44,121 bases of DNA from positions 1-44,121 of IMG/VR virus record IMGVR_UViG_3300033067_000707; one strand, given 5' to 3'. A program made the position numbers and the translations under genes. The notes beneath the pieces were generated by a model. That model searched no databases and was not told the origin of the DNA. It saw only the letters and a list, made by a program, of their open reading frames with translations. This document shows positions 6,721 to 25,185 of this stretch, in pieces. The DNA comes from a virus. Its lineage: Duplodnaviria; Caudoviricetes. Position 1 is the first letter of the stretch. Every line of letters starts with the position of its first letter.

Positions 6721-6976
6721 GCCCCGGATCCAGACAAAGATCGTCATTCGCGAGAAGATGGTTTTTGCTGAACCCGATCCTGCTCTTCGTTCTTGCATGG
6801 ATCGCCTTGAACGTCGGCCGGTCAACAGCGATGCAGACATCGCCAAGCTGATTGCCGACAGCTTCGAAGTCGGGGATGACTGCCGCTCGAAGCTCAACGC
6901 AACCTGGAAGTCCATCGATGATACGCGCGCCCGGGTAGAGGCGTTCAACCGCGCACAGGAGGCGCAGCAGCCGTGA
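6635..6976 (+). CDS. o-spanin lipoprotein (Rz1-like)
   Basis: Signal peptide with lipobox LLTAC; AGGAG RBS; overlaps i-spanin in the +1 frame. Confidence 0.8.
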   Translation: MQSIKLRRPILALSLLSSLTLLTACGGNEPRIQTKIVIREKMVFAEPDPALRSCMDRLERRPVNSDADIAKLIADSFEVGDDCRSKLNATWKSIDDTRARVEAFNRAQEAQQP

Positions 6977-7617
6977 ACCCTTATGAAGTCCTGGGCGTAG
7001 CGAAGGGCGCAAGCGCTGATACGATCAAGCGAGCATATCGGTCGAGAGCTCGAACCGCTCACCCGGACAGCGGGGGTACTGAGGAAGAAATGATCCGGGT
7101 CTCAGAGGCTTACCATATCCTCTCGGACCCGGATCGCCGCAAGCGTTATGATGCGACGGGGAAGACCAAGCCTTCGCCTTGCACTCCCGAAGCGGTGGAG
7201 GAATATCTCGCCGGCCTGATGGTCATAGTCGTAACGGCAAAGCGGCCCGACGGTACACGCGACGACCCGACGCGCGAGAACATACGTGATAAGCTGCTGC
7301 TCAGCATACGTCAGGCGCGCAATGAGGCGAAGAACAATCGCTTCGAAGTGCAACGCATGATCGAGCGAACGCAACGCCTGCTGGAGCGCTTCAAGCCTCA
7401 GGAGGACTTCGATCCTGTGGGCAATTCATTGCGGCGGGAGAAGGACAAGCTTCAGTCCGAGATGGATCGGATCGATGATCTGATGGAAATGATGGACGAA
7501 GCTACGAAGGTCCTCAAGACTTACAAATATGAAAGGGGCCCCGGACCGGAGGGACAGCACAGTCCGGGACCCACCCTCCGCTTGGCGCGGAACTCGACTA
7601 CTCCTCTTTGGGAGTAG
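6973..7617 (+). CDS. DnaJ (J-domain) protein
   Basis: NPYEVLGV..IKRAYR..HPD..AYHILSDPDRRKRYD. Confidence 0.9.
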   Translation: MNPYEVLGVAKGASADTIKRAYRSRARTAHPDSGGTEEEMIRVSEAYHILSDPDRRKRYDATGKTKPSPCTPEAVEEYLAGLMVIVVTAKRPDGTRDDPTRENIRDKLLLSIRQARNEAKNNRFEVQRMIERTQRLLERFKPQEDFDPVGNSLRREKDKLQSEMDRIDDLMEMMDEATKVLKTYKYERGPGPEGQHSPGPTLRLARNSTTPLWE

Positions 7618-8486: not shown

Positions 8487-9245
8487 TTATCCAAGATATT
8501 CGACCATGAGGCCGCGGCAGACAATATCATTTGCGACAGCACCGGTGCCTACCTGACCGGTAGCCTTAATTTCTACGGTGGCGGTCAGGTCCTGCGTGGA
8601 GGTCAGTGTCCCAAAGGCGTTGCCCGCACTGGTGCTGCTGTTGTTGGTGCTCCACTGGGCCACGATGTCCATGATCCTTTGTGTGGCCGATCCCGTCCGT
8701 ATGATGGTCCCCGATACACAAAGAAAGGTGTGGGCTGCCGTGGTGGAAGTCAGGAAGCCGATCACCGTGCTACCAAAATACAGCCTCCCGGTGCGCGAGC
8801 GAGTGGTGCCCGCAAAGTTAAAGTTTGCGCTGATGCGAAGTGCCTTGTAGTCCCGGTTCAAGAAGTTGGCGGGCATGGTGAAGGTTGCCAGCGTCTTCTC
8901 GGTCGTTGCCGCGTTGGTGCCCACCCCCGAGTCGGTGAGATACATCAAGCCGGGCATTGCTTCTCGGGGTGCCACACAGGCGACAGTCGCCGATCCCGTC
9001 AGGTTCAGCAGCGACCCTGTGGAGGAGGCTACCAGGGTTCGAGTCAGCGTGGTGCCGGAAGCAGTGTAGGTACCATAACCAATTTCCCAGGCCGTCCCAT
9101 CCTCGATCAGGTAGTCATAGACGAAGCCATCTACCGCACCTGCCGCCGACCATGACTGATAGGGCGTAACCGAGCTGCCGAGAGTGACAGTCCCGGTTCC
9201 GGTCGTCGAGGTATTGACCTTAGCGCGATTGAGAAGGATAGACAT
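8487..9245 (-). CDS. Tail fibre/appendage protein
   Basis: N-terminal NRAK..TTGTGTVTL..WEIGYGTY..TLTR domain typical of phage fibres; Thr/Gly-rich. Confidence 0.6.
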   Translation of the reverse strand: MSILLNRAKVNTSTTGTGTVTLGSSVTPYQSWSAAGAVDGFVYDYLIEDGTAWEIGYGTYTASGTTLTRTLVASSTGSLLNLTGSATVACVAPREAMPGLMYLTDSGVGTNAATTEKTLATFTMPANFLNRDYKALRISANFNFAGTTRSRTGRLYFGSTVIGFLTSTTAAHTFLCVSGTIIRTGSATQRIMDIVAQWSTNNSSTSAGNAFGTLTSTQDLTATVEIKATGQVGTGAVANDIVCRGLMVEYLG

Positions 9246-9253
9246 AGATCACC

Positions 9254-9580
9254 TTACCACAGGATTGAGATGGACCCGCCGCCGGCTGCGAGCGAGTTAC
9301 CGGACATAAGGACTTCGCGAACAACGTAAGCGACCCGAACCTCAGCGTTGGCTTCAGTAAACAGCACCTCTCGAATGGCGCTGGCAACGCGCACCTCGCC
9401 GGGTCCACCGAACAGCACCTCTCGAGCCAGGTAAGAAACCCGGACAGGATCGATGCCGCCTAGGGCGGGAACCAGGCCCGCGACCAAGACTGTGCCGATC
9501 AGCGGAGTTACTATGGTCCCGCTGGTTGTCGATAGGATCGAACCTACTGGCGCTGAGCCTACAGGATCGAAACCGGCCAT
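9254..9580 (-). CDS. Small virion protein with three 17-18 aa VRVxxxxREVL repeats
   Basis: Repeats visible in the protein and as AACAGCACCTCTCGA recurring 51 bp apart in the DNA. Confidence 0.6.
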   Translation of the reverse strand: MAGFDPVGSAPVGSILSTTSGTIVTPLIGTVLVAGLVPALGGIDPVRVSYLAREVLFGGPGEVRVASAIREVLFTEANAEVRVAYVVREVLMSGNSLAAGGGSISILW

Positions 9581-10035
9581 CAGCTGGTGACCGTGATGAT
9601 GCCGCTGCTAAGCGGGATAAGGAGGGGACTCACGGAAGCCGTCACCGTAGAGGAACCGCCAAGGTCGTTTGCATCGAAGAAACAGAACAGGTCCTTGTTG
9701 GCGTTGGTATCGTCATAGATAACGCCATACTTGAATACCAAGGATCCCGTCAGCGTCCAGCTCGCATCGGTGGCCAACCACGTTACCACGTTGCTTACCT
9801 GGCTTAGCGATATTCCTGACAGCGCAAGACCGCCGGACGTATACCCTCCCGCGGTTGCAAGCTCATTGGTTAGGTCGGAGTATCGACAATCGGTCGAGCT
9901 CCCAACAAAGGCTCGGCTAAGCGCCTGTGTGGAGCCACAAAGCGCTAGCTTGAAGCTGTGACTGTCGAGGTCAATCAGCCCTTGGGTGAACTTGAGCTCA
10001 CCTTTATTGAATAGTGTCCATGCACCAACAGCCAT
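9580..10035 (-). CDS. Putative virion/tail appendage protein
   Basis: IDLDSHSFKLAL..NELATAGGYTSGG pattern common in phage tail modules; synteny. Confidence 0.55.
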   Translation of the reverse strand: MAVGAWTLFNKGELKFTQGLIDLDSHSFKLALCGSTQALSRAFVGSSTDCRYSDLTNELATAGGYTSGGLALSGISLSQVSNVVTWLATDASWTLTGSLVFKYGVIYDDTNANKDLFCFFDANDLGGSSTVTASVSPLLIPLSSGIITVTS

Positions 10036-10045
10036 TGGTCAGTCC

Positions 10046-11599
10046 TTACGAAACAAGCCGCATACCGTGACGCGCGGCGTTGAGGCCCGCGGCGGTCCAT
10101 GCAGCCGAGGTGTGGGGGTCAGTATCGAAGTAGGAGCCATACTGAGTCACAGAGGAGGGAACCGACTGAGCCGAGAGGCTGCCAGAGGACGTGGTAACAT
10201 TCGACTTCGTTCGGATATCCATCGTCCGGACGCCGGTACCATTGAGGTAAGCTACAGCCTTGATGCCCACACTGTAGATCTGCGCGGGTGTGGTGCTGAG
10301 CGCATCGAACTCATATAGATCTTCATCGCCGGGAGTGGTCGAGATATTGTAGGACGTGGCAGTCGGGTAGGGACCCTGGGCTACCTGGACCCAGTTGTCC
10401 GTCACACCAGTTAGCGTTGCCCAGATGCTGATCGTCCCAGCGCCTGAAGTCATCGTCGGAGCCGTAGCTGGTGCGCCTGACGTGTAGGTGTTGGCTGCCT
10501 GGAAGCCCGCCGCCGATGAGTCATAGCGGTTCATCGCAATTGAGGTGTCGGTGATGTAACCCACCCAGTAGTCGACCCCGGCAGTCAACGCCTGAGGAGT
10601 TACCAGAGGCAACGTCAGCTGGGCGTTGGAAGTCGTTCCCACCACCTCGGTACCGCTTGACAGCAGGGAGCCCGGAACGCCACCACTATCCGCGTAGATC
10701 ACGCCTTTCAGCTTAGCGGTTGCAGATGCCGTGTTGGGAACGGTATTGATCGCGGTAGCCGTACCACTCGCCTGTGCGGTATACTTGATAAGGAACAGTC
10801 GGTTGGCACCCGGCGAGTAGGTGTTGAGGGCGGTGAGGCCCAGTCGCTGACCCAACTGACTTGCGCCAACGTCCCACTGCTTTTGGCTGTCCGCCTTGAC
10901 GAAGTGAGTCTCCACAATCGGGTTGCTGAGCGCGGGAGTCTCCGAGCCGCCCGCAGCCGTGTAGCACCAGAGATAGAAGTGATCGAGGACGGTCACTTGA
11001 GTGTTGCCCTGGAGTATTTGGATGCCGTTGAACACGTTGCCCGCAATCGGCGAGGTGTTGATCCCCGTAAGCGTCAGGTTCGGCTCCGCTACGCCATTGA
11101 CGTAGACCTTGGCGATGCCCGTCGAGCCATGGAAGGTGAAGTCCCACTCGAGGACGATGATCGAGGAAGAGGTGAAGGTCGAAGTCCCCGTCGCCAGAAG
11201 AGTACCACCGCTTGCGGATCCTCGGTAGACCTGAAGGCGGCCAGTCAAGTCCATGCTGATGGACATCTGGGCTGAAGCACCCAACAGGAACTCAACTCCT
11301 GCTTTCTGGGATCCCGTATTGGTCATTGGCCAGTTACGGAGTGTAATACCACCAAGCACTCGAGCATAGGACGCGGGCAAGTACTTCGTCAAGCCGAAAC
11401 GGCCACCCGCACCCAGGTTACCGATCTCCAGTGCATAGCCAGTTCCCGTCAGCGCGGTGGTAATGCCCATCGCGTCACCAGTGATGTCATTCCACTCACC
11501 ACGGATAATCATGCCGTCTAGGCCGGCATCCGTATTGTCCATGATCGCGGTTCCGTACTTGTCGAAACCATCGATGAAGGTGTAGTCGGGGAGAGCCAT
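10046..11599 (-). CDS. Virion structural protein, beta-rich; paralog of 16757-17830
   Basis: FIDGFDKY start, DEDLY and DPHTSAAWT end; located in the tail cluster. Confidence 0.6.
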   Translation of the reverse strand: MALPDYTFIDGFDKYGTAIMDNTDAGLDGMIIRGEWNDITGDAMGITTALTGTGYALEIGNLGAGGRFGLTKYLPASYARVLGGITLRNWPMTNTGSQKAGVEFLLGASAQMSISMDLTGRLQVYRGSASGGTLLATGTSTFTSSSIIVLEWDFTFHGSTGIAKVYVNGVAEPNLTLTGINTSPIAGNVFNGIQILQGNTQVTVLDHFYLWCYTAAGGSETPALSNPIVETHFVKADSQKQWDVGASQLGQRLGLTALNTYSPGANRLFLIKYTAQASGTATAINTVPNTASATAKLKGVIYADSGGVPGSLLSSGTEVVGTTSNAQLTLPLVTPQALTAGVDYWVGYITDTSIAMNRYDSSAAGFQAANTYTSGAPATAPTMTSGAGTISIWATLTGVTDNWVQVAQGPYPTATSYNISTTPGDEDLYEFDALSTTPAQIYSVGIKAVAYLNGTGVRTMDIRTKSNVTTSSGSLSAQSVPSSVTQYGSYFDTDPHTSAAWTAAGLNAARHGMRLVS

Positions 11600-14301
11600 T
11601 AGCGAGTTCCCTTGATCGAGCCATAAACAAGACCCTGCATCCCGTTCAGGTTAGCGGGTGCAACAATGATGACGGGCTGCCCAAGCGGGATGCTCGAAGC
11701 AGACGCCTTGATAAAGGTGCCCGTGGAAGCACCGGACGCAAAGCGGAGAGTACCGATGGACGTCCCCGGCGGTGACTGAATGTCGAAGTCCGTAGTAGCT
11801 GTGGGAGTTGCCATCGATTGACTCGGCGCATCAGTCAGCGTTGCTTGACTATCGGTCAATCCCGCAGGGATCGTCCAAGCGACCGGGCTATCGAACCAGG
11901 CAATTGCCTTCGAAGCCACAGGAGACGGCCAGCTGAACGCGAAACCGAAAGGTTGGCCAGTTCCAGACGTGCTAGACGTGAGGTTGAGGCCGGCGGTGTT
12001 GTTGCTGTCGCCAATCGCGTTGCTCGCGACCAAGAAGTAGGTGTAGCCAAGGCCGGGACCAATCGCGCCGTCGTCATAGGCGGTAGCGGCAGCCGGGGCT
12101 GTAGCAATCAGCGAGGCAGTACCGAACGCTGCCCCGGTCCCCGATGCACGGTAGATCTTGTAGCCAGTGACATTATCATTGGGTGAGTTAGCCATCCAGG
12201 TCAGTCGATTGACGTTGCCGCTCGCCGATCCCGACAGTCCCGAGGGCGTAGCTGGTACGCCGCCAGATCCGGTACCAAAGCCTCCACCTGAAGGCGTGAT
12301 CGAGTAAGCCGTCACTGTGGACAGGTCCTCACTCATGATGTCAAAGGAGTTGACGCTCTGGAACTTCAGGTAAAGCGTCTTGCCGATATACTGAGCCGGC
12401 AAGGTATACTTAAAGATCGCATCATCCAAGAAGGCGAAGTTCGATCCCGAAGCGTGAGAAGCCTTGGTAGACCCATACATACCTCGCCACAGGTTCGTGA
12501 GGTTGTAGGCGTAGGTCGAAGTAAGCGTAGGGATCTCAAACGAAATAAGCTCGCCGTCCACATAGCACAGGTTCTGGCCGGCCGCCGCATCAGTAGCGGA
12601 AGCTTCAGCGTCGAGCTCACCCGCGCTCATCGCCATATTGACTCGGAGGACGTTGCCTGTATCGGGGTTCGTGCCGGCGTAGGTTGCGAGTGATGCACTC
12701 AGCTTACCCATTCGAGAGCTGGCGTCAATCTCGCCGATGTTGACATAGTGAATATCGTCTGTGGAGATCCACACAATCGCGCCGCCCCAGTTCGGGTCGT
12801 TGGTCGTACCATCCCCGCCTGACACAGCAGCCCAGATCTGAGCAACGCCGCCGGTCAGTGAAGACGGCGGTTCGAAGATGATCGGTGGATTGACCGGGCC
12901 CGGTTCCACAGCCGTATTCTTGGGAGTGTTGGTTACGGTCTGTCCCGAGTTGGCAGTCGGCGAAGAGATGCTGGCGGGGTACTCCTCGGCCACAATCTCG
13001 AGAGTGTCGTCCTCGGTCTCGCTGATTTCGCGTATCAAGACGTTGAACGTACCGAGCTGAGCGTCCACCACAGTAAGAACGTCCATCGGCTCGAGCAAGC
13101 AGAATTTGACCGGGAGAGTGAACTCATAGGTGTTGCGGATATACGCGCGGCGCTGGCCGATGAGTGCAACAACCACCTGAGCCATGGACAGCTCGGTGAT
13201 TTCCTTTGCCTCGAGGTTGTCATCCTTACGGAGGCCATACTGATCGACCAGCCCCTGATCGCGCCACGGCACAGGGAGCTCGTTATATTCGTTGGCCCGA
13301 TTGGCGATAATCATGGACAGCGAGTTGTAGGCGTCCGCGGGATCGGAGCGGTTCATCTTGATTGGGTCATCGCCAGAGTAGACGAAATCCGCATCCGTAA
13401 GCGTGTATCGAACCGGGAAGTCCGGAACGTAAGTCACCCCGTTGCCCGTCACAGTGTCCGGACCATATGGATGGAACTTCATCGAGTAGCCGTTCCACAC
13501 AATCGCGGTATTGCAGAGCATCGCCCAACGCTCAACTGTCTCACCGGCAGGAGTCTGCTGAGTCAAGCACGGCGACAGGGCAAATCCCATCGCGCGGCAA
13601 TACGTCTGGAAGGCGCTGTCGCCGGTCGTCGTAGCTGCGGGTGTGGAATACAGACCGGTGATGACCGACATATCGAACCCAAGGCCGAAGCTGTCATCGG
13701 TCAAGAAGTCCTCGACAATGAGTGCGGGGTCAGCATCGAGGGCGGTAGCTCCACCGCCGAGGCCCGTGTCCCAACGCAAGCCTTGAACCTCAAAGCTGTG
13801 CTGACCGAGAGCGTTCGACTGACCGAGGTCGTAGTTCGAGACGTCCACATGGGCGATGCCCGAATAGCCGAGCGCCTCCGTGGGATGCTTGGTCGTCAGA
13901 TAACCCCAAGGCGACTGAGGAGTCGTACCGAGGAAGAAGCTGAAGGCAACAGGAAGGCCTGCACCTCCACCGCCGCCCTTCTTCGACTTCGAGCCGCTGC
14001 CGCCTGTGGTCGTGTAGGCGATCTTCGACTGATCCTTCCACACCGAGACGATGCCGTGAACCTCGCCCCAGCACAAGCCCATCTGGAAAGACGCGGTGTA
14101 GGTGTAGGTCGTTACCGACTTACCACCGCCCTTGCCCTGCTTCTGCTTGTGAGCCTTGAAGTCGCCTTGCCAGATGACGTTGGGTGCCAGTCGGTTCTGG
14201 CCCCAACAGATCGGGATCGGCAATGCGCTTGAGGACGTCTGGGCCTGGATCCCCGTGAACTGGGGTTTGACCTTGCCGCCGCCTCCACCGAAGAAGCTCA
14301 T
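11599..14301 (-). CDS. Central tail/hub protein (Phage-tail_3, GTA megatron-like) with FN3 domain
   Basis: PIPICWGQNRLAPNVIW, YSGIAHV, LEPMDVL, LWRGMYGS, FN3-like LTW..VTGYKIYR..YTYFLVASN. Confidence 0.8.
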   Translation of the reverse strand: MSFFGGGGGKVKPQFTGIQAQTSSSALPIPICWGQNRLAPNVIWQGDFKAHKQKQGKGGGKSVTTYTYTASFQMGLCWGEVHGIVSVWKDQSKIAYTTTGGSGSKSKKGGGGGAGLPVAFSFFLGTTPQSPWGYLTTKHPTEALGYSGIAHVDVSNYDLGQSNALGQHSFEVQGLRWDTGLGGGATALDADPALIVEDFLTDDSFGLGFDMSVITGLYSTPAATTTGDSAFQTYCRAMGFALSPCLTQQTPAGETVERWAMLCNTAIVWNGYSMKFHPYGPDTVTGNGVTYVPDFPVRYTLTDADFVYSGDDPIKMNRSDPADAYNSLSMIIANRANEYNELPVPWRDQGLVDQYGLRKDDNLEAKEITELSMAQVVVALIGQRRAYIRNTYEFTLPVKFCLLEPMDVLTVVDAQLGTFNVLIREISETEDDTLEIVAEEYPASISSPTANSGQTVTNTPKNTAVEPGPVNPPIIFEPPSSLTGGVAQIWAAVSGGDGTTNDPNWGGAIVWISTDDIHYVNIGEIDASSRMGKLSASLATYAGTNPDTGNVLRVNMAMSAGELDAEASATDAAAGQNLCYVDGELISFEIPTLTSTYAYNLTNLWRGMYGSTKASHASGSNFAFLDDAIFKYTLPAQYIGKTLYLKFQSVNSFDIMSEDLSTVTAYSITPSGGGFGTGSGGVPATPSGLSGSASGNVNRLTWMANSPNDNVTGYKIYRASGTGAAFGTASLIATAPAAATAYDDGAIGPGLGYTYFLVASNAIGDSNNTAGLNLTSSTSGTGQPFGFAFSWPSPVASKAIAWFDSPVAWTIPAGLTDSQATLTDAPSQSMATPTATTDFDIQSPPGTSIGTLRFASGASTGTFIKASASSIPLGQPVIIVAPANLNGMQGLVYGSIKGTR

Positions 14302-14777
14302 TCATCCCTCCAATAGGTATAGACGCGAAGTGGGCGAAGCGATAACGGTGTCCCTCGTATGTCAACTTCCTCGACAATTTGAGACATGGCATACGCATGG
14401 ATTACATAGGGCCACTGCGTCACCAGCGCCGAGTGCGAAAACGTGCGACCGAGACGCAGCATCAGGACATCGCCAGGCTGCGGTTGGAAGCTCTCAGGCC
14501 GCTCATACGCAGCGCGCTCGTCATCATCCACCGGGTGCAAGCGCGCTTCGATCTCAGCTAGGTATTTTTCCTCACCGCGATGCAAGTGCCAGTCCATCGA
14601 ATATACGGCTGGCTCGAAGAAGTCCATGAGGCCAGCGCCCGAAAAGGCGTTGACCAAGAGCTGGGCACAATCGCACCCGTGACCCTTGACGCTGGCCCGG
14701 TGATGGTAGGGAGTACCGAGCCACTCGCGAGCTGCTGCCACAACGCGGGCGCGCTCTTCCTGTTCCTTATCCGCCAA
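14298..14777 (-). CDS. NlpC/P60 tail-associated peptidase
   Basis: AREWLGTPYHH..GCDCAQL..PGDV..FSHSA..IHAY. Confidence 0.9.
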   Translation of the reverse strand: MADKEQEERARVVAAAREWLGTPYHHRASVKGHGCDCAQLLVNAFSGAGLMDFFEPAVYSMDWHLHRGEEKYLAEIEARLHPVDDDERAAYERPESFQPQPGDVLMLRLGRTFSHSALVTQWPYVIHAYAMSQIVEEVDIRGTPLSLRPLRVYTYWRDE

Positions 14778-15669
14778 TTGCCGTCTCCGCTACTGGAATG
14801 AAGGGGAAACCCTTGAAGTAGTTTTCCCAGTTCGATGGGTGAAAGGTGGGGCATCGATCCTTCGTCCGATTGCATCCTGGATAAGCCGTGAAGTCCATGC
14901 CGGCGAGCGGGTCGAAGTCAAGCGGGTAGGACAGGTAAAGCCCAGACCCGTCCGCACGGGAGATAGTGCGAACGCGGGTCGTGCCATCCCCGTTGGTTAT
15001 GTGGATCTTGCCCAGGGCGTATTCGGAGGAAGAGGAAGCCCAAGGCAGATAGTTGCGAGTCGGCGAGGATCCCACAGTGCCGAGCACCGCCCAGGCCGAT
15101 TGGTCAACCCCGCAGATCGGGTCGCCCCAGGTGTTCTTGCAGTTCGCTTCCCACAGGTCGCGGGGCATATCGACGTTGAGCAAGATCAAGTCAGACTTGA
15201 CGTTCATGGTTGCCGACTGACGACCGACCGCGGAGAGCGTCGATACAAAACCGCTGAAGAGCGGGAAGCCGCCCATCCAAGGCTGACCAGGCGCGGTAGC
15301 GATAAAGCGATCCCGCTTGACCTTTGCGCCATCGAGTCGCCCGCGGAGCAGCGCCTGTGGCCAAGTCAGTTGAGCCTGATAGAGGATCTCAGGCGGGTAG
15401 TCAAGTTGCAGCTGCTGCTCATCGACTTCCACACCCACGCTGTTGTTGACCCGCAGTCCCTTGATGAGAACTACGCTGCCCGTGTAGGTAACGCGGGAGA
15501 TCCCGTCGATAGGAACCACGGAGACATCGGTCTGATAGTTTGTGTAGCGCATCACCACTCCCGTCTTGGGAATGATAGTGAAGCAGTCCGCATAGGCGAA
15601 CTGACCGCTGGCGAGAGCATCCTCGACATCAGCAGCCACGTAACCGGGTTGGGGCGTGATCGTTCTCAC
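14767..15669 (-). CDS. DUF2163/BR0599 baseplate hub protein
   Basis: C..WGDPICGV, PGCNRTKDRC, FKGFPFIP; GTG start overlaps upstream stop (GTGA). Confidence 0.85.
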   Translation of the reverse strand: MRTITPQPGYVAADVEDALASGQFAYADCFTIIPKTGVVMRYTNYQTDVSVVPIDGISRVTYTGSVVLIKGLRVNNSVGVEVDEQQLQLDYPPEILYQAQLTWPQALLRGRLDGAKVKRDRFIATAPGQPWMGGFPLFSGFVSTLSAVGRQSATMNVKSDLILLNVDMPRDLWEANCKNTWGDPICGVDQSAWAVLGTVGSSPTRNYLPWASSSSEYALGKIHITNGDGTTRVRTISRADGSGLYLSYPLDFDPLAGMDFTAYPGCNRTKDRCPTFHPSNWENYFKGFPFIPVAETAIGG

Positions 15670-16757
15670 TGGATAACACTCCGAAAGTTGCAGGTCTGCA
15701 TCGACCACAGTTGATCCATGAACTTCTCGAAGTCCTGCTGGTCGTCAAGGAAGCGGCAGGCGAAGAAGAACTGGAAGTCCGCGTAGATCTCCCCGGCGCT
15801 GGGTGCCGAGTCGAACAGAATGAAGTTCGGCTGACGAACACTGTAGAGCAGGTCGGAGACCTCGTAGCCGTAGGTGATCGTCACTGCAGCACCGGCATCC
15901 GCGGCGTTGAACGTATAGACGCCCGCGCTGACGGAATACTGACCGGCGGCCGGAGCACCCGTAACTTTGGTCATCGGCGTGGTGCCCTTGAGAACGCCGG
16001 CATCCCTGTGGAACGCAGCGGAATGGACAGTCGTGATTTCATAGGGAGCCATCGCTGGGATCGTGCCCGCCTCGTCGATCTGGTGATAGACAGCGATAGT
16101 GTTGGCCGTGTCAACCTGATTGACCTTCTCGGCGAAGCCTCCAAGCGTCCGGGTGAAGGGGAACTGAGTCGTTGCGCCGTCAGAGGTCCCACACAGGCCG
16201 TACTCGACGAGGTAATCGTCGGGGTCTTTGAGCAGGAACGTATCGAACGAACCGCGCATCTGAAGGAAGAAGCCCATGATCGTCTTGAGTGAGGACTCAG
16301 CGCCGCTCCGATCCTCCAGGAACTCATAGGAGAACTCGAAATCCCAGCGGGGGTATTCCATGAAGGAAGTGCGAACCTCGCCGCCAGCTGCCGACTCGAC
16401 AACGCGAGTCTTGAAGTAAGGCTTCTTGTGGACCGAGTAGGTGATGCCGGGGAGTGCGGTCTTGGCAGGATCCTTTGCCGCCGGGATCGACGGGGTGGTC
16501 GTGCTGTTGCCGAAGCCGGGGAAAGGGGTGGTGCTCATGGGTAACTCCGGTTGTACTGGAAACAAGGCCTGACAGAAAATCTCACACACTCGAATAGTCG
16601 AGTAACCACCCACCAGTGGCTGAGCCTGCTGATAGTTGGAACGGATAACCGAGTAACCGCCGTTGAGCGGTTGTGCAAACGTGAGGTTAAGCCGCACACT
16701 GGAATAGCCCGCGACAACAGGCTGCTGTATTGTCCAGTTAAGGCGGATCTCAGACAT
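15666..16757 (-). CDS. DUF2460 distal tail protein with N-terminal repeats and an inserted domain
   Basis: GGEVR..YPRWDFEFSY, FFLQMRGSFDTFLLKDPDD, FFFACRFLDD. Confidence 0.85.
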   Translation of the reverse strand: MSEIRLNWTIQQPVVAGYSSVRLNLTFAQPLNGGYSVIRSNYQQAQPLVGGYSTIRVCEIFCQALFPVQPELPMSTTPFPGFGNSTTTPSIPAAKDPAKTALPGITYSVHKKPYFKTRVVESAAGGEVRTSFMEYPRWDFEFSYEFLEDRSGAESSLKTIMGFFLQMRGSFDTFLLKDPDDYLVEYGLCGTSDGATTQFPFTRTLGGFAEKVNQVDTANTIAVYHQIDEAGTIPAMAPYEITTVHSAAFHRDAGVLKGTTPMTKVTGAPAAGQYSVSAGVYTFNAADAGAAVTITYGYEVSDLLYSVRQPNFILFDSAPSAGEIYADFQFFFACRFLDDQQDFEKFMDQLWSMQTCNFRSVIQ

Positions 16758-17830
16758 TAGACATCGACCCTCGGACCGATCTTCAGCGTGTTAACTTCGC
16801 CACCCGTAAAGGCTACGCCGGTGTCGGGGTTGAGCTCATAGACATCGCTGTAGAACGTGTAGCTCTGGTTGATTGCCCAGCTGTTGCCGTATGCGCTAAC
16901 GCCGGTCGCAGTCTTGATGCTGTTCGAGACAAACCGCTGAGTCGCATCGTCCTGACGATAGGAGGCATTAATCTCAATCCCGAAGACCTGAGGAGTGTTA
17001 AGCACCGGATTGATATTGTAGAGGTCTCGATCATTGACAACGGACTCATAGACATAGGTAGTGTCATTGAGAGCGGTGTTAAGAACAGACTGCCAGTTCG
17101 TCGCAGCGGGTGAAGTACCCCCGATGTTCCACTGGACTGTATCGTTGGAGACCGGCGCCATGTACTGAGCCCGGACGTTACCGAGGTAGTCGTTGTTTAC
17201 CGTCCCCTGATCGTCCAGCAGGTAGAAGTCATCCCAGCGCCAGCTGTCGGTAGCACCCGAGATTGAGCTCTTCCACCACTCGAAGGTGTCCCACCCCCGA
17301 GTACCCACACCGACGAGAGTACCGTAAGCCGTCTGCACGGAGGGGAGCGACAGGATAGGAACCGTGTTAATCTTTAGCTCAAAGCTGCCGGTAGTTAGAT
17401 GCGGCGTCCATTTGATTTCAAGGTAGAACCATTTGTTGGGGACGTACTGGCCAGCACCCGTTCGGGAGACAATGGTGTTGTTCCCCGTAATGTAGTCGAT
17501 ATTGCCGTTCTCCATGAAGTGCAGTCGCCATTGACGCTGCTCGCCGCTGGTCATGGAGTCGATAGCGGATAGGGAGTAACCCGGGCCAGTTGACGGGATC
17601 TTCATCCGCATCCCGATGACGCACTCGCCGGTGTAGCGGTTCCGCATATACCGCTGAAGGTAGTCATTGTTATTGTTGCTTGACAGCCCCATCGCGTAGC
17701 CATAGCCGAACGCCGTCGAGGAGTCACGGACTGTGGAGCTCGTGTTACCGAACCAGCCCTGGGCCTGCATTACCGCACTAATGCCCGATGAAGGCAGATA
17801 GTCGAAGCCGTCAATAATCCGAAGAGTCAT
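16757..17830 (-). CDS. Virion structural protein; paralog of 10046-11599
   Basis: IIDGFDYL start, WFYLEIK, DDFYLLD, DRDLY, NPDTGVAFT; lies between tape measure and Dit. Confidence 0.65.
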   Translation of the reverse strand: MTLRIIDGFDYLPSSGISAVMQAQGWFGNTSSTVRDSSTAFGYGYAMGLSSNNNNDYLQRYMRNRYTGECVIGMRMKIPSTGPGYSLSAIDSMTSGEQRQWRLHFMENGNIDYITGNNTIVSRTGAGQYVPNKWFYLEIKWTPHLTTGSFELKINTVPILSLPSVQTAYGTLVGVGTRGWDTFEWWKSSISGATDSWRWDDFYLLDDQGTVNNDYLGNVRAQYMAPVSNDTVQWNIGGTSPAATNWQSVLNTALNDTTYVYESVVNDRDLYNINPVLNTPQVFGIEINASYRQDDATQRFVSNSIKTATGVSAYGNSWAINQSYTFYSDVYELNPDTGVAFTGGEVNTLKIGPRVDV

Positions 17831-20800
17831 CGCTTGCCACCCAGCTTGAGGTTACCGTTGCGGGCTTCATTCTTGATCCACTTACGCAACGCCATGCCGT
17901 CCCGACGAAGCAGGCTCTCGAGGTTCGAGTCCTGGTTGTTATGGGTCGGCTGATAGTTGAAGTTGACGGAGTCACCACCATTGTTGACTTCGCTCCGAGC
18001 AGTCATGCCCGCGGCGGAAGCAGCGCCAAACATCGCGCCGGAGGATCCCGCCTTCAGCTGCTGACGCATCGGCTCAGCGATCCATGCGGGAAGGATCATT
18101 TCCTTCTTGTGGACCATGGCCAGCTGATCGCCCGGCACTTCATCCATACCGCCCTTAGCGGAGATAAGCGCACCGAACCCAAGCACAGCAGCGAGCGCGA
18201 GGGCAGCAGCCGCAGGCGCAGCAACGGGACCGATGAACGGAATGACCACAGTCGACTTGTATGCGCCAGCAGCAGCGACAGCCGCGTTGGTACCGATTTC
18301 GGTAGTACCCGCAGCGGCGGCAGCAGTCGTTTGCGTGGCAGCCCCGGTAACAGCAGCGGTCGTCTTGATGCCTTCAGCCGCCACAGCTGCCGCGGTCGTC
18401 GCGGTGGTGACAGTCTGCTTCACTGCCTCGGCGCCAGCGACAATGCCGGTCCGTGCAGTTTCACCACCCGCGACTACGGCAGTCTTGGCAGCCTGATGCG
18501 CGGTCTCCTGAACCAGCTCACCCGCGTCCATTGCCTTCTTCGCGGTCTTCATACCCATCCAGACCATCATCTGCTGGCCCGCAGCCTGGATCGCCATATC
18601 GACGACCTTGTAGACCATCTGGTCAGCGAGATTGATGAGCCCCTGCTGCAACGTCTGCGAACCCGTCCACAGGCCTTGGAAGGTCGAGGACAGGCCGGAC
18701 GTGAAGGTGTTGGTGATCGATGACCACTGCTGGAGCGTCTGCTGAGCGGCCTGTCGATTGATGTCCGCAACGCCTCGGGCATAGCCCGTCTGCATCGAGG
18801 TCATCCGTGAGAGGTGCTCAGCCTGCTCCGCTTCGATCTGCTGATTGATTTCAGCCTTGCGGTCAGCGCTCTGTCCCGGGAGGTTGAGCTCCTTGTTCAG
18901 ATAAGACAGTCGAAGCTGCCACATGGCCTCTTCATGCGCCTGCTGCTGGGCGTATTCATCCTGAAGCAGCTGAGCCTTGAAGACCAGCGCCTGCCGATCA
19001 CTGATGAGACCGTTCTGGGCAAGGAAGTCGATATTCGCTCCCTTGTTGTTCAGCTTCGCGTCCTCAGCCTCCTGCTCGGCGCGCTTGCGGGTCTCAGCAA
19101 TCTGCTCGGTAGTCCGGAGACGCTGAACGTCCCGGGCGAGGATCATCCGATTGTAGCGCTCGGTGATTTCGAGCTCGTGACGCTTGGCGTCTTCATACTC
19201 CTTCGACTGCTTGCCCCAGGCGCTCTCGACAATCGCGAGTCGAGCAGCCTCGTAGGTCCGGACCTTCTCGAGCTTCTGGTCCATCGTGAGCGCGTCGTCT
19301 TGGGCAAGAGCGGCCTCGTTCGTATCGATAGCCGCCATCGCTTCACGAGCAGCCTTCTGGGCGGCGGACTCGAGGTCACGCATACCCTCGGCTTCAGCCC
19401 GCAGCGTATCAATGGGAAAGATCCCCTTGCGAGGATCAACCGGTCGACCATTGATGCGGACTTCATAGTGCAGGTGAGGCTTGACGCCGCCGGTAGCACC
19501 CGACTTCGCAAACTCCTGACCCTTCTCGATGCGCTGACCCCGTTCGAGGCCCGACGTATCGGACAGGTGGAGGTAGCGAGTCGTTACGCCGGCCCCATGA
19601 CTCATGATGACATACTTGCCCATCGTCGGACTGTAGCCCACAGTCTCGATGGTGCCGACCTGGGGAGCCTTGACAGCCGTCCCTGTGGGAACAGCGATGT
19701 CGAGACCCGCGTGATTAACGGAGCCGCGAGTACCGTCAGCCTTCAGTGGTGCATTGCGCTTACCGAAGCTCGAGCTGATCGGGCCATTGGCAGGCATCGA
19801 GTATGCCGCCTGCTCTGCCTTAATCTCACGAGCATTCTCACGGTGAGCGGCGGCCTCCTTCTTGACGATGGCCTCATGCTTCTCGCGGGCCACTGTCAAG
19901 TCATTGAGCATCTTCTCATAAGCGCCGGCAACCCCGGCATTCTTACGATAGGTCTCCATGATCGCCTGCTGCTCATCATCATACCGCTTGTCTTCAGCGG
20001 TCTGAGCGGATCGAGCCTTGGCGACTTCGATGTTGCTTTCAGCGAGTCGGGCGTTCGAGGCAGCCAGCGCGTCCTGGGCGTCCTTCAATCCCCGACGGGC
20101 ACCCTTGACTTTGGCCTCCGAAGCAGCAAGCTGCGACCAGTATATCTCGCCGGATCCGCCGCGAGCCTGAAGATCCTGCTGTTCCTTGAGCGCCTGGTTC
20201 AGCTTCTTCTGTGCGGCCGTTACAGCATCAGTCGCTTCCTTGACCTGCTTCTGGGCATCAGCCTGCGACAGTCGAAGGTTCTCGGAGTCGACGTTGTTCT
20301 TCTCGCGAGCAGCCTTGACGTATTCCCAGGTGGCGGCAGTGACTTCACGCAGCGAGGAAACGCGACGCCACTCAGCATCGGTAACGTCCTTGGTCTTCTT
20401 CTCATTCTTGTCGTTGGCCGTCCACAGGAAGCCGAGGACCGTGACAGCGCCGAGGATCGCAGCGCCCCAGGGACCGGCGAAGAACGCAGCGACACGACCA
20501 GCGGTTCCGCCCATGGTCGACAACGCCGCCGCGGTCTGACCGCCCTGCTGAGCGAGGATCACCAGAGGATTGATGCCCGACGCATAGGACGCGACCACGT
20601 CCTGCATCTGATAACCGATCTGGACGTTCATGGCGTTCATCTGGCCCATCGAACGGACGTTGACGTCCATCTGTGCCTTCGCCTGACGTTGGATCTGGAT
20701 CCACTCACCCGTCTGCAGCTTGTTCTGCATCAGGAGCGCGGTGGCCTTCTGCATGGTATCATTGTAGCGCTGCTGAGCGGCAAACGTCGGATTGATCGAC

Positions 20801-21786
20801 GAGCGGATCTCCGCAAGAGCATCGGCCTCACGCTTTGCCGCGCGGGCGGCTTCCTCCGAAGCTCGGACGCTTTCCTTCTTGGCAGCAGTTACCTGCTTCT
20901 CCACAGCAGCCCGTTCCTTGGCCGCCGCCGTAGCTACCGCGGTTGCCTCACGAGCAGCCTGCATTTCTTCGCGATTGACCGCCTTTGCCACAGCAGCCTG
21001 TGCTTCGAGGATCGCGGTCTCCGCAGCCTTTCGCTGTTGAGCTGCAGCGACAGCCTCGGCGGCTGCTTCATCGACCAGCTGCTTCGCGGCACCATAGGTC
21101 TGCTTGTAGCTCGCGAGGATTTCCTGGTCGGCTTGATGCTCCGCGGTGAAGCGTTCGCGGGCAGCCTGCTTTGCAGCAGCCGCAGCGTCACGGATCATCG
21201 CCGTCTCAGCAGTCTTCGTTACCGACTGACCGCCGCTGCGCATCGCTTCGACGCGAGCAGCCGCAGCAGCCTTCGCAGCCGCCACAGCCTCGAGGACGTA
21301 TGCCTTCTCGGCGGTCTTGCGCTGTTCGAGTTCCTGACGAAGCGCGGCGGTGTTACGCTTCTCCTGTGCAAGCCAGCCGGCAGCAATCTGACGCTGCTGA
21401 TTAGCCGCAGCCTCGCGAGCCTTGACCTCTTCAAGAATCGCCTGCTTCTTCTCGAGCTCAGCCTGCTTGGCGACCGAGCTGTTCTTTTGGATAGCAGCGA
21501 TCTGACTTTCGTAAGCCTTCTTGACCAGATCGATGCCTCGGGCATACGACTCCTGGTCGACCTTGCCCTGCTTGAGCAGGCGGTCGTATTCGCTGAGGGC
21601 TTGGTTATACTTCTCCGTCGCTGCAAACGTGGGATCGATGGCCGACTTCAACCTACGGAAGGCTGCGTCGAGCTGCTTCGACTCATTGACCACAGAGCCG
21701 ACGGCGGAGACCGTCTTCTTTGCACCCGCCTCAGCCTGAGTCGGATTGATGCCAATGTTAATCTCGAGATTGTTGTCGTCGGCCAT
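17827..21786 (-). CDS. Tape measure protein with internal M23 peptidase domain
   Basis: 1319 aa, Ala-rich helical; QMQDV..ILAQQGGQ (TMP_2-like); HAGLDIA, YLHLS, HLHYEV. Confidence 0.92.
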   Translation of the reverse strand: MADDNNLEINIGINPTQAEAGAKKTVSAVGSVVNESKQLDAAFRRLKSAIDPTFAATEKYNQALSEYDRLLKQGKVDQESYARGIDLVKKAYESQIAAIQKNSSVAKQAELEKKQAILEEVKAREAAANQQRQIAAGWLAQEKRNTAALRQELEQRKTAEKAYVLEAVAAAKAAAAARVEAMRSGGQSVTKTAETAMIRDAAAAAKQAARERFTAEHQADQEILASYKQTYGAAKQLVDEAAAEAVAAAQQRKAAETAILEAQAAVAKAVNREEMQAAREATAVATAAAKERAAVEKQVTAAKKESVRASEEAARAAKREADALAEIRSSINPTFAAQQRYNDTMQKATALLMQNKLQTGEWIQIQRQAKAQMDVNVRSMGQMNAMNVQIGYQMQDVVASYASGINPLVILAQQGGQTAAALSTMGGTAGRVAAFFAGPWGAAILGAVTVLGFLWTANDKNEKKTKDVTDAEWRRVSSLREVTAATWEYVKAAREKNNVDSENLRLSQADAQKQVKEATDAVTAAQKKLNQALKEQQDLQARGGSGEIYWSQLAASEAKVKGARRGLKDAQDALAASNARLAESNIEVAKARSAQTAEDKRYDDEQQAIMETYRKNAGVAGAYEKMLNDLTVAREKHEAIVKKEAAAHRENAREIKAEQAAYSMPANGPISSSFGKRNAPLKADGTRGSVNHAGLDIAVPTGTAVKAPQVGTIETVGYSPTMGKYVIMSHGAGVTTRYLHLSDTSGLERGQRIEKGQEFAKSGATGGVKPHLHYEVRINGRPVDPRKGIFPIDTLRAEAEGMRDLESAAQKAAREAMAAIDTNEAALAQDDALTMDQKLEKVRTYEAARLAIVESAWGKQSKEYEDAKRHELEITERYNRMILARDVQRLRTTEQIAETRKRAEQEAEDAKLNNKGANIDFLAQNGLISDRQALVFKAQLLQDEYAQQQAHEEAMWQLRLSYLNKELNLPGQSADRKAEINQQIEAEQAEHLSRMTSMQTGYARGVADINRQAAQQTLQQWSSITNTFTSGLSSTFQGLWTGSQTLQQGLINLADQMVYKVVDMAIQAAGQQMMVWMGMKTAKKAMDAGELVQETAHQAAKTAVVAGGETARTGIVAGAEAVKQTVTTATTAAAVAAEGIKTTAAVTGAATQTTAAAAAGTTEIGTNAAVAAAGAYKSTVVIPFIGPVAAPAAAALALAAVLGFGALISAKGGMDEVPGDQLAMVHKKEMILPAWIAEPMRQQLKAGSSGAMFGAASAAGMTARSEVNNGGDSVNFNYQPTHNNQDSNLESLLRRDGMALRKWIKNEARNGNLKLGGKR

Positions 21787-22555: not shown

Positions 22556-23308
22556 TTACGCGCCGCCGCCAGTGATCGAGGTCGTGGTAATTCGACCGAT
22601 GCGATTTGCCGAGTCGGCCATAGCCTGCCCGGAGAGTTCTGCCACCAGGTAGTCATCCTGCTTGAGTGGCAGTGACAGCTTATCTGCCACGTTGCTGTAG
22701 AGCAGCATGGTGAACGTCTTGCTGTCGTAGACCTGCGACAAGACCAGCTGGAACTTCGGCGTCGAACCCATGAGCTGGTTGGAGATAGCCAACGAACCGC
22801 CGGTGGCCGCCGACTCATAGAGGTAGTTGAACAGCATGGCGGTGGACGCCTGGGCGACGTTGAAGGTGTAGACGCCGGCGGAGACCGAGTACTGACCCGC
22901 AGCGGGAGCACCCGACACCTGGGTAAGACCAACGCCCGTTGCTGCATTGTAGACCCCCAGATCCATGTAGAAGTCGGCCGCATGGGTGACGGTCACCGTA
23001 TAGGTGGACATCGCGGGAACCGTCCCCGTCTCATTGATAGCCTGCTTCAGCTCGTCATTGGAGGCCACAGTCTGGCCGAAGAAGATCGTATTGAAGGCGG
23101 TGATGTCGATGTTACCCGACGAAGCCTTCCATTCGATCTTGGTCTTGCCGCGGGCCGTGTCCAGTGCGAACTGGTACTGACCGAACAGCTGCTTGATGTC
23201 GCCCGAGAAATCGACCGACACGTCCTGCAGAGCACCGAAGCGAAGCGGGGCACCGCCGCCAACGGGCGTTGCAAAGAGCTGCCCGGTGCCGAACATATAC
23301 TGACTCAT
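22556..23308 (-). CDS. Major tail tube protein
   Basis: FGTGQLF..FGALQDVSVDFSGDIKQLFGQYQF pattern; synteny; strong codon bias. Confidence 0.8.
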   Translation of the reverse strand: MSQYMFGTGQLFATPVGGGAPLRFGALQDVSVDFSGDIKQLFGQYQFALDTARGKTKIEWKASSGNIDITAFNTIFFGQTVASNDELKQAINETGTVPAMSTYTVTVTHAADFYMDLGVYNAATGVGLTQVSGAPAAGQYSVSAGVYTFNVAQASTAMLFNYLYESAATGGSLAISNQLMGSTPKFQLVLSQVYDSKTFTMLLYSNVADKLSLPLKQDDYLVAELSGQAMADSANRIGRITTTSITGGGA

Positions 23309-23865: not shown

Positions 23866-24373
23866 TGCCTGCGCCCTTCAGTCGAGTCTTGAGCTTCCGC
23901 ACAAGGTAGTAGTACAAGCCGTCAGTAATCTTCGGGCTGATTTCTCGGTAGGCGTCCCGCATGAAGTGCTTGGGTGCAATCGTGCCACCGGGGTGGAATA
24001 CCTTGGTCGCAAATACCTTGTCACCCGTTGCCGCCATGAAAGCCAGCACCTTGCCGTTCTCCGGGTAGATCATATGAGCGGGAGTGGTACCGCCCTTTTC
24101 CTGGATGCGGGCATAAGGGACGCCGGCGATATAGACGCTGCCGTTGATCTTCAAACCTTCTTCGAGGATCTCCACTTCAACGGAGTCCTCGAGTCGACCT
24201 GATACGCGGTTGAGGCGGTCAGCGATGTTGTCCTGCACAAGATCCCGCAGGCGATAGATCCACTCCTCGAACTTGTCCCGCAGGATCATCCTTATGTCAT
24301 CGGGGATGGCCTCGATGTCTTGAAGGAGCTTCCTGTGGCCAAAGAGCTCAACGGAGAGGAAGTCATCGCTCAT
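23858..24373 (-). CDS. Neck protein (HK97 gp10-like)
   Basis: SGRLEDS, PYARIQEKGG, HPG..PKHFMRDA. Confidence 0.7.
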   Translation of the reverse strand: MSDDFLSVELFGHRKLLQDIEAIPDDIRMILRDKFEEWIYRLRDLVQDNIADRLNRVSGRLEDSVEVEILEEGLKINGSVYIAGVPYARIQEKGGTTPAHMIYPENGKVLAFMAATGDKVFATKVFHPGGTIAPKHFMRDAYREISPKITDGLYYYLVRKLKTRLKGAGNG

Positions 24374-25185
24374 ACGGGGATCACGTTCCGGTAGGGCTGC
24401 AGCATCCCGCGGATAGAGTCGTTCATATCCTGACGGCTGTAGGAAATCGTTTCCTGACCACCCAGCGTCTTGGACAGCTGACCGATGCGTTCCTTGCGGC
24501 GGTACCATTCGCCGATCAGCTCGGTCACGCCTTGCGAGACGTCCCACGGTGCGTAGGAGTAAGACATGATCGCGGTCTTGCCCGAGTCGTCAGCCGAGAA
24601 GCTGTAGGTGCCCCACTCGTCAACGGCATACTCGCCGGCAGCGGGGGATCCCGTCACCAGCGTTGCAGCTACGTTATCAAGCGTCACCCCGAGGTCAGCA
24701 GTCCATTGACCGCCAGCAACGGGAGTCAACGTCACCACAGTCGGGAGCGGGTCGCCGGCAGCGTCGGGCACAAGCGAAGCCTGTGAGGTCTCGAAGCCCG
24801 CGCGATATATGATTTGGCAGGAAGTGCGGAACTCGAACTGATAACCATGCAGCTCGACAGCCTGAGGCGCCGAGCGGGGATCGTTCAAGGTGTAACCATC
24901 GGATGGCTTACCGCCCGTGCCGTAGGTCGAGGCAGGAACGATCTTGCCGTTGATGCCCACAGAGGTCACAGAGATAACCGGCCAGTTACGAAGCAGCTCG
25001 GAGACCTTGCCGTTGCCGTAGAAGTTCTGGGTGTAGTCCTGTGCAGCAAGACTATCACGGTTCATGTAGTTCAAGGCGAACTGAGAGGCTGCCTCGATCA
25101 CGCGGACAAGCTGAGCATCGCTCGCATCCGTCGTAATCCCAAGCCAGTCCTTGACCGCCTGAAGAGTAGTCAGCCTCTCAGTCAT
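24370..25185 (-). CDS. Head-tail adaptor (gp6/gp15-like) with inserted domain
   Basis: LTTLQAVKDWL..IEAAS..YRAGF..PWDVSQGVTELI..LQPYR. Confidence 0.8.
   Translation of the reverse strand: MTERLTTLQAVKDWLGITTDASDAQLVRVIEAASQFALNYMNRDSLAAQDYTQNFYGNGKVSELLRNWPVISVTSVGINGKIVPASTYGTGGKPSDGYTLNDPRSAPQAVELHGYQFEFRTSCQIIYRAGFETSQASLVPDAAGDPLPTVVTLTPVAGGQWTADLGVTLDNVAATLVTGSPAAGEYAVDEWGTYSFSADDSGKTAIMSYSYAPWDVSQGVTELIGEWYRRKERIGQLSKTLGGQETISYSRQDMNDSIRGMLQPYRNVIPV

Follow-up and report, generated by a model that had tools for sequence, protein, structure and literature searches.

The window analysed here, a stretch of 44,121 nucleotides comprising the whole of virus record IMGVR_UViG_3300033067_000707 (Caudoviricetes; ~73% complete), codes for two paralogous putative tail proteins, termed X1 and X2, and for two tandem arrays of a repeat of about 17 amino acids (aa), termed ropes 1 and 2. 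It is highly probable that these repeats dock by insertion as a strand that X1 and X2 themselves are missing. The two paralogues would be lectin-fold tail proteins with a C-terminal jelly roll one strand short, each 17-aa repeat would fill the resultant gap, and a single rope would carry several subunits to form a beaded arm. The original prediction that each repeat donates a β-strand was supported by the strand carried in cis by homologues, by a controlled model of an X1 complex, and by co-occurrence across phages; the module is real and widespread. The features principally concerned are as follows.

16757..17830, minus strand: X1, 357 aa, phrog_2448, with a concanavalin A (ConA)-like lectin/glucanase domain (17192-17830) and a jelly-roll acceptor domain apparently without its last strand (16760-17191).
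16563..16748, minus strand: rope 1, comprising four repeats of 17 aa, putative donor strands, in the N-terminal part of the distal tail protein (Dit), from the repeat scan and the complex model.
10046..11599, minus strand: X2, 517 aa, paralogue of X1, with an insert of ~157 aa (10412-10882) in the acceptor domain that gave a weak lead to DUF4082 or to a lectin-like fold.
9254..9580, minus strand: 108-aa candidate adaptor, in which rope 2, of three repeats (9308-9445), is preceded by a middle segment (9455-9514) and an N-terminal motif (9539-9580).

A six-frame search of the window (88,238 residues) with the originally proposed pattern [IV]R-x6-[QE]-x-[LV] returned 10 matches, seven of which constituted the two arrays: four in rope 1 (16748, 16697, 16646 and 16595; spacing 17/17/17) and three in rope 2 (9445, 9394 and 9340; spacing 17/18). 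The self-repeat score of each rope protein was reached by none of 300 shuffles; those of the tip and tape measure proteins likewise exceeded their own shuffles (0/60), the tip protein scoring lower. Of the claim that a tandem array follows each paralogue, the arrays themselves were borne out, but not the adjacency in the case of X2, a gene for a 151-aa protein being placed between it and rope 2.

The N-terminal, central and C-terminal motifs said to be common to X1 and X2 were all located on the minus strand. Direct comparison by BLASTP was weak (24% identity over 101 aa, E 3e-5), and the match to phrog_2448 extended over residues 5-356 of X1 (E 5.5e-32) and over two stretches of X2 (E 6.6e-13). 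Family profiles built from 111 and 105 sequences nonetheless aligned end to end by HHalign (probability 100, E 1.7e-40, 20% identity), and this alignment placed a single insert of ~157 aa in the longer paralogue, at about X2 residues 240-396. A recent local duplication was ruled out by a tree that grouped X1 with its orthologues in other phages (support 1.0) and left X2 outside that clade; the tree was a quick one in which the X2 sequences were split, making its deep branching unreliable. Since X1 and X2 belong to lineages common to other phages, the duplication must be old, so that paralogy was upheld and recent duplication was not. One other locus (L037, 4676-19745) held six family paralogues, the sixth being followed by a long array of repeats.

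The AlphaFold 2 (AF2) model of X1 was a confident one (predicted local distance difference test score, pLDDT, 96.6), as was that of its C-domain folded alone (pLDDT 92.2). Residues 1-210 formed a ConA-like sandwich (Z 15.7, root-mean-square deviation (rmsd) 3.2, 193 residues aligned to 2zzj; best Z 17.6). The C-domain resembled jelly rolls of the carbohydrate-binding module (CBM) type (best Z 8.1, rmsd 3.2, 126 aligned), and the alignment ended 11-26 residues short of the chain end in isolated CBMs (1of3, 1wcu, 2cdo, 2vzp), a remainder which, in this fold, corresponds to the last strand. Complete folding without the peptide had been named as an outcome that would tell against strand donation: confident as the AF2 model was, residues 219-225 had no strand partner in either monomer model, so that in substance the fold was left incomplete, and the same residues lined the slot in the complex model described below. 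Searches of Pfam and NCBIfam yielded no name for the acceptor domain, and sequence searching no solved relative. Searches of PDB sequences with X1, Dit, the 151-aa and 252-aa proteins and profiles A1, A3 and A4 yielded nothing credible, the nanobody rows returned being at chance level. Foldseek returned no match to the C-domain at E 0.001, and no phage fibre subunit was among the matches listed, although one may have escaped the listing.

Family proteins characteristically stopped where this domain stops, the chain ending no more than 3 residues from its last strand in 351 of 352 and 59 of 62 proteins in two sets; the four exceptions carried an extra hydrophobic strand. A deep search with the acceptor domain recovered 25,047 clusters at 50% identity, phage and cellular together, of which the best 150, contributing 124 new representatives, were used to look for a strand in cis. 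Lectin-domain proteins among these representatives stopped at the domain end in 98 of 99 cases, while the internal domain copies of 17 multidomain proteins, which carry CARDB, PKD, vWA or M4 peptidase domains beside the acceptor-type domain, ran on through a turn into a strand (for example IRVTQLYVEVV or ARVTQLWVEVT). A motif of the form [IVA]R[VC]TQ[LVI][YW]VEV, written after inspection of the tails, was matched at 39 of 46 internal ends as against 86 of 1380 control windows, and a profile made from the rope repeats alone scored at least 3 bits at 24 of 45 internal ends as against 65 of 1380 control windows. The complete jelly roll of these cell-surface multidomain proteins (P0302, P0314, P0337, P0327) is homologous to the acceptor domain of X1 and X2, but keeps its last strand in cis where the acceptor domain is without it. 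Because multidomain homologues carry a rope-like strand in cis, the repeat has the look of a last strand of this very domain, relocated and multiplied; by comparison with their complete homologues, the acceptor domains of X1 and X2 are one strand short.

Complex prediction was undertaken with two copies of X1 plus Dit residues 1-68, alongside three controls, using a score mark attained by solved complexes in 116 of 157 cases and by mismatched pairs in 2 of 215, frequencies that are only roughly valid for a job of this kind. The X1/Dit combination scored 0.80 and the best control 0.00; the runs agreed in at least 99% of contacts, with a partner pLDDT of 71-78. As originally anticipated, one repeat was assigned to each X1 copy, in the same slot in both: rope residues 15-53 (repeats 2 and 3) filled a slot formed by X1 residues 218-226, 248-263, 277-299 and 351-355, with antiparallel X1:rope pairs at 291:23, 289:26 and 287:28. 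Each rope 1 repeat is predicted on this basis to pair with a single X1 copy, running antiparallel to strand 285-291 and lying next to 218-226, and rope 1 could hang up to four X1 subunits from each long Dit subunit. Conservation of the slot residues was 0.69 as against 0.47 elsewhere, and 0.59 in the rest of the C-domain (p 0.009). No solved relative was detected by sequence, which makes it less probable that the complex scored well through memorised structures. As a prediction, the model supports binding of X1 to rope 1.

Co-occurrence was assessed in a sample of loci (L001-L120) that yielded 87 family genes once near-duplicates, fragments, the close relative of the window, and any gene followed by less than 2.5 kb had been set aside. 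A matrix trained on the window detected arrays within 2.5 kb downstream of 40/87 genes as against 2/87 on the reverse strand, and the cross-validated equivalent gave 47/87 as against 0/87, in agreement with the predicted association of repeats and gene family. A repeat detector that made no use of the motif responded too readily to stretches of low complexity (at a score of 50, 54/87 downstream and 26/75 upstream) and was used for viewing arrays only. By eye, and within the loci sampled, none of 12 Dit loci lacking a family gene within 4 kb had a repeat extension. The carriers of ropes were variously Dits of the DUF2460 type, another type of Dit (Kimi), and stand-alone proteins of 63-103 aa (phiCbK gp102, Cp1R7A-A1 gp112, and those of L040 and L041). 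In phiCbK (L003, 11007-12306), a 69-aa, three-repeat rope (gp102) lies directly upstream of a family gene (gp103), both being annotated as hypothetical; the module is likewise unannotated in Chi-like, Brevundimonas, Sphingomonas and Mesorhizobium phages. Many ropes ended in a separate globular domain (L006, L014, L029, L032, Kimi). The Dit ropes of L006 (11119-12495), L014 (9242-10813), L029 (11107-12402) and L032 (11602-13149) started with a globular domain resembling, by eye, the X2 insert, as if it were an arm cap.

A number of results weigh against strand docking as described. All ten genes are known from sequence alone, their presence in the virion being presumed, and the complex model covers X1 and rope 1 only, so that the carriage of three X2 subunits by rope 2 is inferred. 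The CBM Z-scores of 7-8 for the C-domain are middling, and the rope profile ranked the in-cis strand of the four exceptional family proteins first in only one case. In the cross-validated scan 40/87 family genes were without an array, many of them showing other array types by eye; there was none at L038, L042, L043, L060, L088 or L099, L042 having a strand of its own.

As regards which paralogue is served by which rope, repeat sequence correctly predicted subfamily in 41 of 41 leave-one-locus-out tests, using arrays from 14 of 22 X1 genes and 27 of 40 X2 genes. Arginine occupied repeat position 8, preceding a glutamate, in 98% of X2-linked repeats and was not among the top residues of X1-linked repeats, a distinction matched by the alignment of Glu230 of X2 with Lys/Gln/Arg222 of X1; a contact between Glu230 and Arg8 may consequently underlie a preference of each subfamily for its own repeat. 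Arrays of a third repeat type were confined to 4 of 153 loci, where a third subfamily was invariably present, and lay in ropes bearing both types, according to a pattern defined from the same loci in which it was counted; two other third-subfamily loci ended at a contig edge. Set against this, the three repeats of rope 2 scored nearly equally under the X1 and X2 profiles (16.5/18.9, 10.5/19.2 and 20.9/21.6), the rope 2 matrix outscored that of rope 1 beside 13 of 22 X1 genes, matrices trained on the window separate the subfamilies poorly, and subfamily and repeat are co-inherited, so that their agreement does not constitute independent evidence. Because rope 2 repeats fit both profiles and the rope 2 matrix wins beside X1 genes, specificity may be loose. 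Strand donation could even be real yet promiscuous, both paralogues loading on both ropes to give mixed arms and no cognate code, a doubtful alternative which gains from the single core motif common to both arrays and from the fact that close cousins of true partners likewise pass the complex test, but which accounts poorly for Arg8 and for the confinement of the third repeat type. Co-variation, confounded as it is by kinship, somewhat favours a cognate preference.

The fold and position of X1 and X2 make it fairly probable that they bind a receptor, in which event the ConA-like heads would attach to a host surface glycan with avidity arising from multivalency. The N-domain matched lectins and glycanases at Z 15-17 and is the more variable part of the subunit, to which X2 adds a further domain. 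These properties are not those expected were X1 and X2 mere spacers or stiffeners of the arms, with the receptor bound instead by a domain at the rope tip or by the tip protein of 900 aa; that possibility, tentative as it is, draws on the globular ends of many ropes, on the fact that a ConA fold by itself shows no function, and on the failure to identify sugar-binding residues in the subunits.

The protein that bears rope 1 was identified as Dit from a PF09343 match of 103 bits (cut-off 30.4) and the placement of its gene after that for the tape measure, a match to TIGR02217 falling below cut-off. Two further features are relevant.

15666..16538, minus strand: distal tail protein core, DUF2460 / Rcc01695-like, from a profile match.
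16536..16548, minus strand: GGAG Shine-Dalgarno-like word (16545-16548) and in-frame ATG (16536-16538; Dit codon 74), the likely second start, for a rope-less Dit.

At the junction of rope and Dit, all 27 aligned fusions (near-duplicates and L064 being left out) had a start codon in frame and preceded by GGAG or GAGG, in the same column in 26, as compared with 40 of 10,362 codons overall. The junction codons were ATG (14), GTG (12) and TTG (1), and all 11 junction valines were GTG as against 250 of 845 in the background. L064, which has no internal start signal, is a counter-example. Rope-less Dits begin at the position of this start, which likely yields a second, rope-less Dit product, as judged from the conserved signal; such a form would lower the number of arms per ring. 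It is unlikely that the signal is instead a relic of a rope gene fused to an ordinary Dit gene, giving rise to no second protein: rope-less Dits do start at the junction, and Pro-Glu codons alone can spell GGAG, but the signal has been kept in diverged phages with any of three start codons and with every valine as GTG.

The manner in which rope 2 is attached to the tail would differ. The N-terminal motif of the 108-aa protein was seen only in 11 loci, from 7 distinct phages, all of which had the 151-aa gene and, truncated L023 excepted, a gene of the 252-aa type as well; four other loci had the 151-aa gene without the adaptor motif. From this co-occurrence, the 151-, 108- and 252-aa proteins are inferred to make up a three-part adaptor, with rope 2 tied to the tail via the 151-aa and 252-aa proteins. 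For the 151-aa protein, a protein language model gave a lead to GP4 gp80 (PF23140; 0.86, 178 features, the family on 23% of members), the 140-aa GP4 gene being taken as gp80 from its length; sequence comparison yielded no Pfam match in 12 members, and 0.2% by HHalign. Relatives of the 151-aa protein were found in 221 records, nearly all mycobacteriophages. That weak lead and the position of the 151-aa gene between X2 and rope 2 are the grounds for supposing that the repeats have some other partner, be it a further repeat, the tube or, as in GP4-type ropes, the 151-aa protein, with the lectin genes as mere neighbours, a very improbable arrangement given that repeats are kept in most X2 loci even though these are without the 151-aa gene, that the repeat resembles the domain's in-cis strand, and that X1 and Dit 1-68 form a complex in the model.

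Proteins that donate or share strands in this way are familiar from chaperone-usher pili, in which an incomplete β-sandwich is completed by a strand of another chain, each immunoglobulin-like pilin donating its own N-terminal extension to the next subunit and a chaperone being required. The incomplete β-sandwich is common to both systems; here, by way of contrast, the acceptor is a jelly roll, the predicted donor strands are arranged in tandem on a single scaffold that belongs to another protein, and a profile scan detected no chaperone or usher genes among the 31 window proteins. A closer likeness is to the chain-like fibres of the podophages A1002, GP4 and VP1, in which a rope, fused to a tail protein or separate, recruits many subunits by β-sheet augmentation, two paralogues occupying distinct stretches of one rope in A1002 (PMC13730344). 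An extended scaffold with serial docking sites is equally suggested here by the repeats and the X1 model. However, the subunits of those fibres are homodimers of 140-171 aa, whereas X1 and X2 are two-domain proteins of 357-517 aa, a difference in length of more than twofold, X1 being modelled as a monomer per repeat that completes a split jelly roll. X1 and X2 showed no sequence similarity to the 140-aa GP4 protein, and no GP4-type chain was among the fold matches listed, the best of which were CBM jelly rolls.

In JBD30, the three gp47/gp48 heterodimers of each arm are wrapped by a loop consisting of residues 2-74, at the N-terminus of Dit; that Dit is trimeric and of another type, and the portion of the report covered describes no repeat-by-repeat strand donation (PMC11445458). 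No JBD30 arm protein was among the fold matches listed. The module seems to work like the A1002/GP4/VP1 fibres, but subunit size, domain content and best fold matches differ, and membership in that group or in the JBD30 group is unsupported. Evolved Dits of Gram-positive siphophages display carbohydrate-binding modules as covalent insertions (PMC7533335), and 5ly8 was among the X1 fold matches; in the window their putative counterparts are separate proteins, several of which are predicted to share a rope. The DUF7941 fibre cloud of Goslar resembles the proposed module in that paralogous subunits build flexible filaments used in host search, but it is a head-to-tail self-polymer restricted to chimalliviruses (bioRxiv 10.64898/2026.04.21.720040), and the window proteins had no DUF7941 match. 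No description of the X1/X2 family, the strand split or the internal start was found in a search of the main texts of openly available papers.

Extension to the Chi-like phages is suggested by Escherichia phage Utah, in which four family paralogues (gp33-37 region; L002, 9695-16154) lie beside a 731-aa protein (gp37) containing three kinds of strand-like repeat, at least 21 copies in all. Fully extended, gp37 would measure an estimated ~240 nm (0.33 nm per residue), the reported length of the Chi-like fibre being 220 nm (PMC9266447). Immunogold labelling assigns the curly fibre to YSD1_29 (PMC12264135), which counts against the extension; the candidate proposal is that the long curly fibre is a gp37-type repeat protein beaded with its four neighbouring paralogues, and not YSD1_29 alone. 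Taken jointly, these elements might amount to a plug-and-socket code in thousands of phage lineages, in which a split jelly roll has had its last strand multiplied into ropes grafted on different tail parts, each lectin subfamily recognises only the strand type that belongs to it, rope sequence sets the number and order of heads, the number of arms on a Dit ring is governed by the internal start, and the Chi curly fibre is the extreme form; so comprehensive a scheme is conceivable, though the odds are against it. Should docking hold, it would explain the multivalency of such tails, with subunit number predictable from sequence, offer a model, open to testing, of flexible fibres that are not yet resolved, and provide a split-domain tag of natural origin that can be likened to the engineered plug-and-display pairs.

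The closest cultured relatives of the virus are the Brevundimonas siphophages Polewnik and Strzyga, the capsid protein being 72-73% identical (72.5% for the major capsid protein of Polewnik). On the minus strand, the genes are ordered tape measure, X1, Dit (DUF2460), hub, NlpC/P60, tip protein, X2, 151-aa, 108-aa and 252-aa proteins, and lysis genes, of which the following complete the features recorded.

14767-15708, minus strand: baseplate hub, from the profile scan.
14298-14777, minus strand: NlpC/P60 protein, from the profile scan.
11599-14301, minus strand: tail tip protein, Phage-tail_3 (~900 aa), from the profile scan.
9580..10035, minus strand: 151-aa phrog_644 protein, candidate linker subunit.
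8487..9245, minus strand: 252-aa protein, the N-terminal domain of which co-occurs with the 151-aa gene and the adaptor N-terminal motif.

The tape measure protein (17827-21786, minus strand) contained an internal M23 peptidase domain at residues 691-785. A gene for a DnaJ-domain protein (6973-7617, plus strand) was convergent with the lysis genes, and Polewnik has a similarly placed gene. An inserted domain of ~75 aa (a phrog_8234 stretch) was common to Dit (15666-16757), a putative tail tube protein of 250 aa and a head-tail adaptor, the latter two being coded for at 22556-23308 and 24370-25185 of the window.

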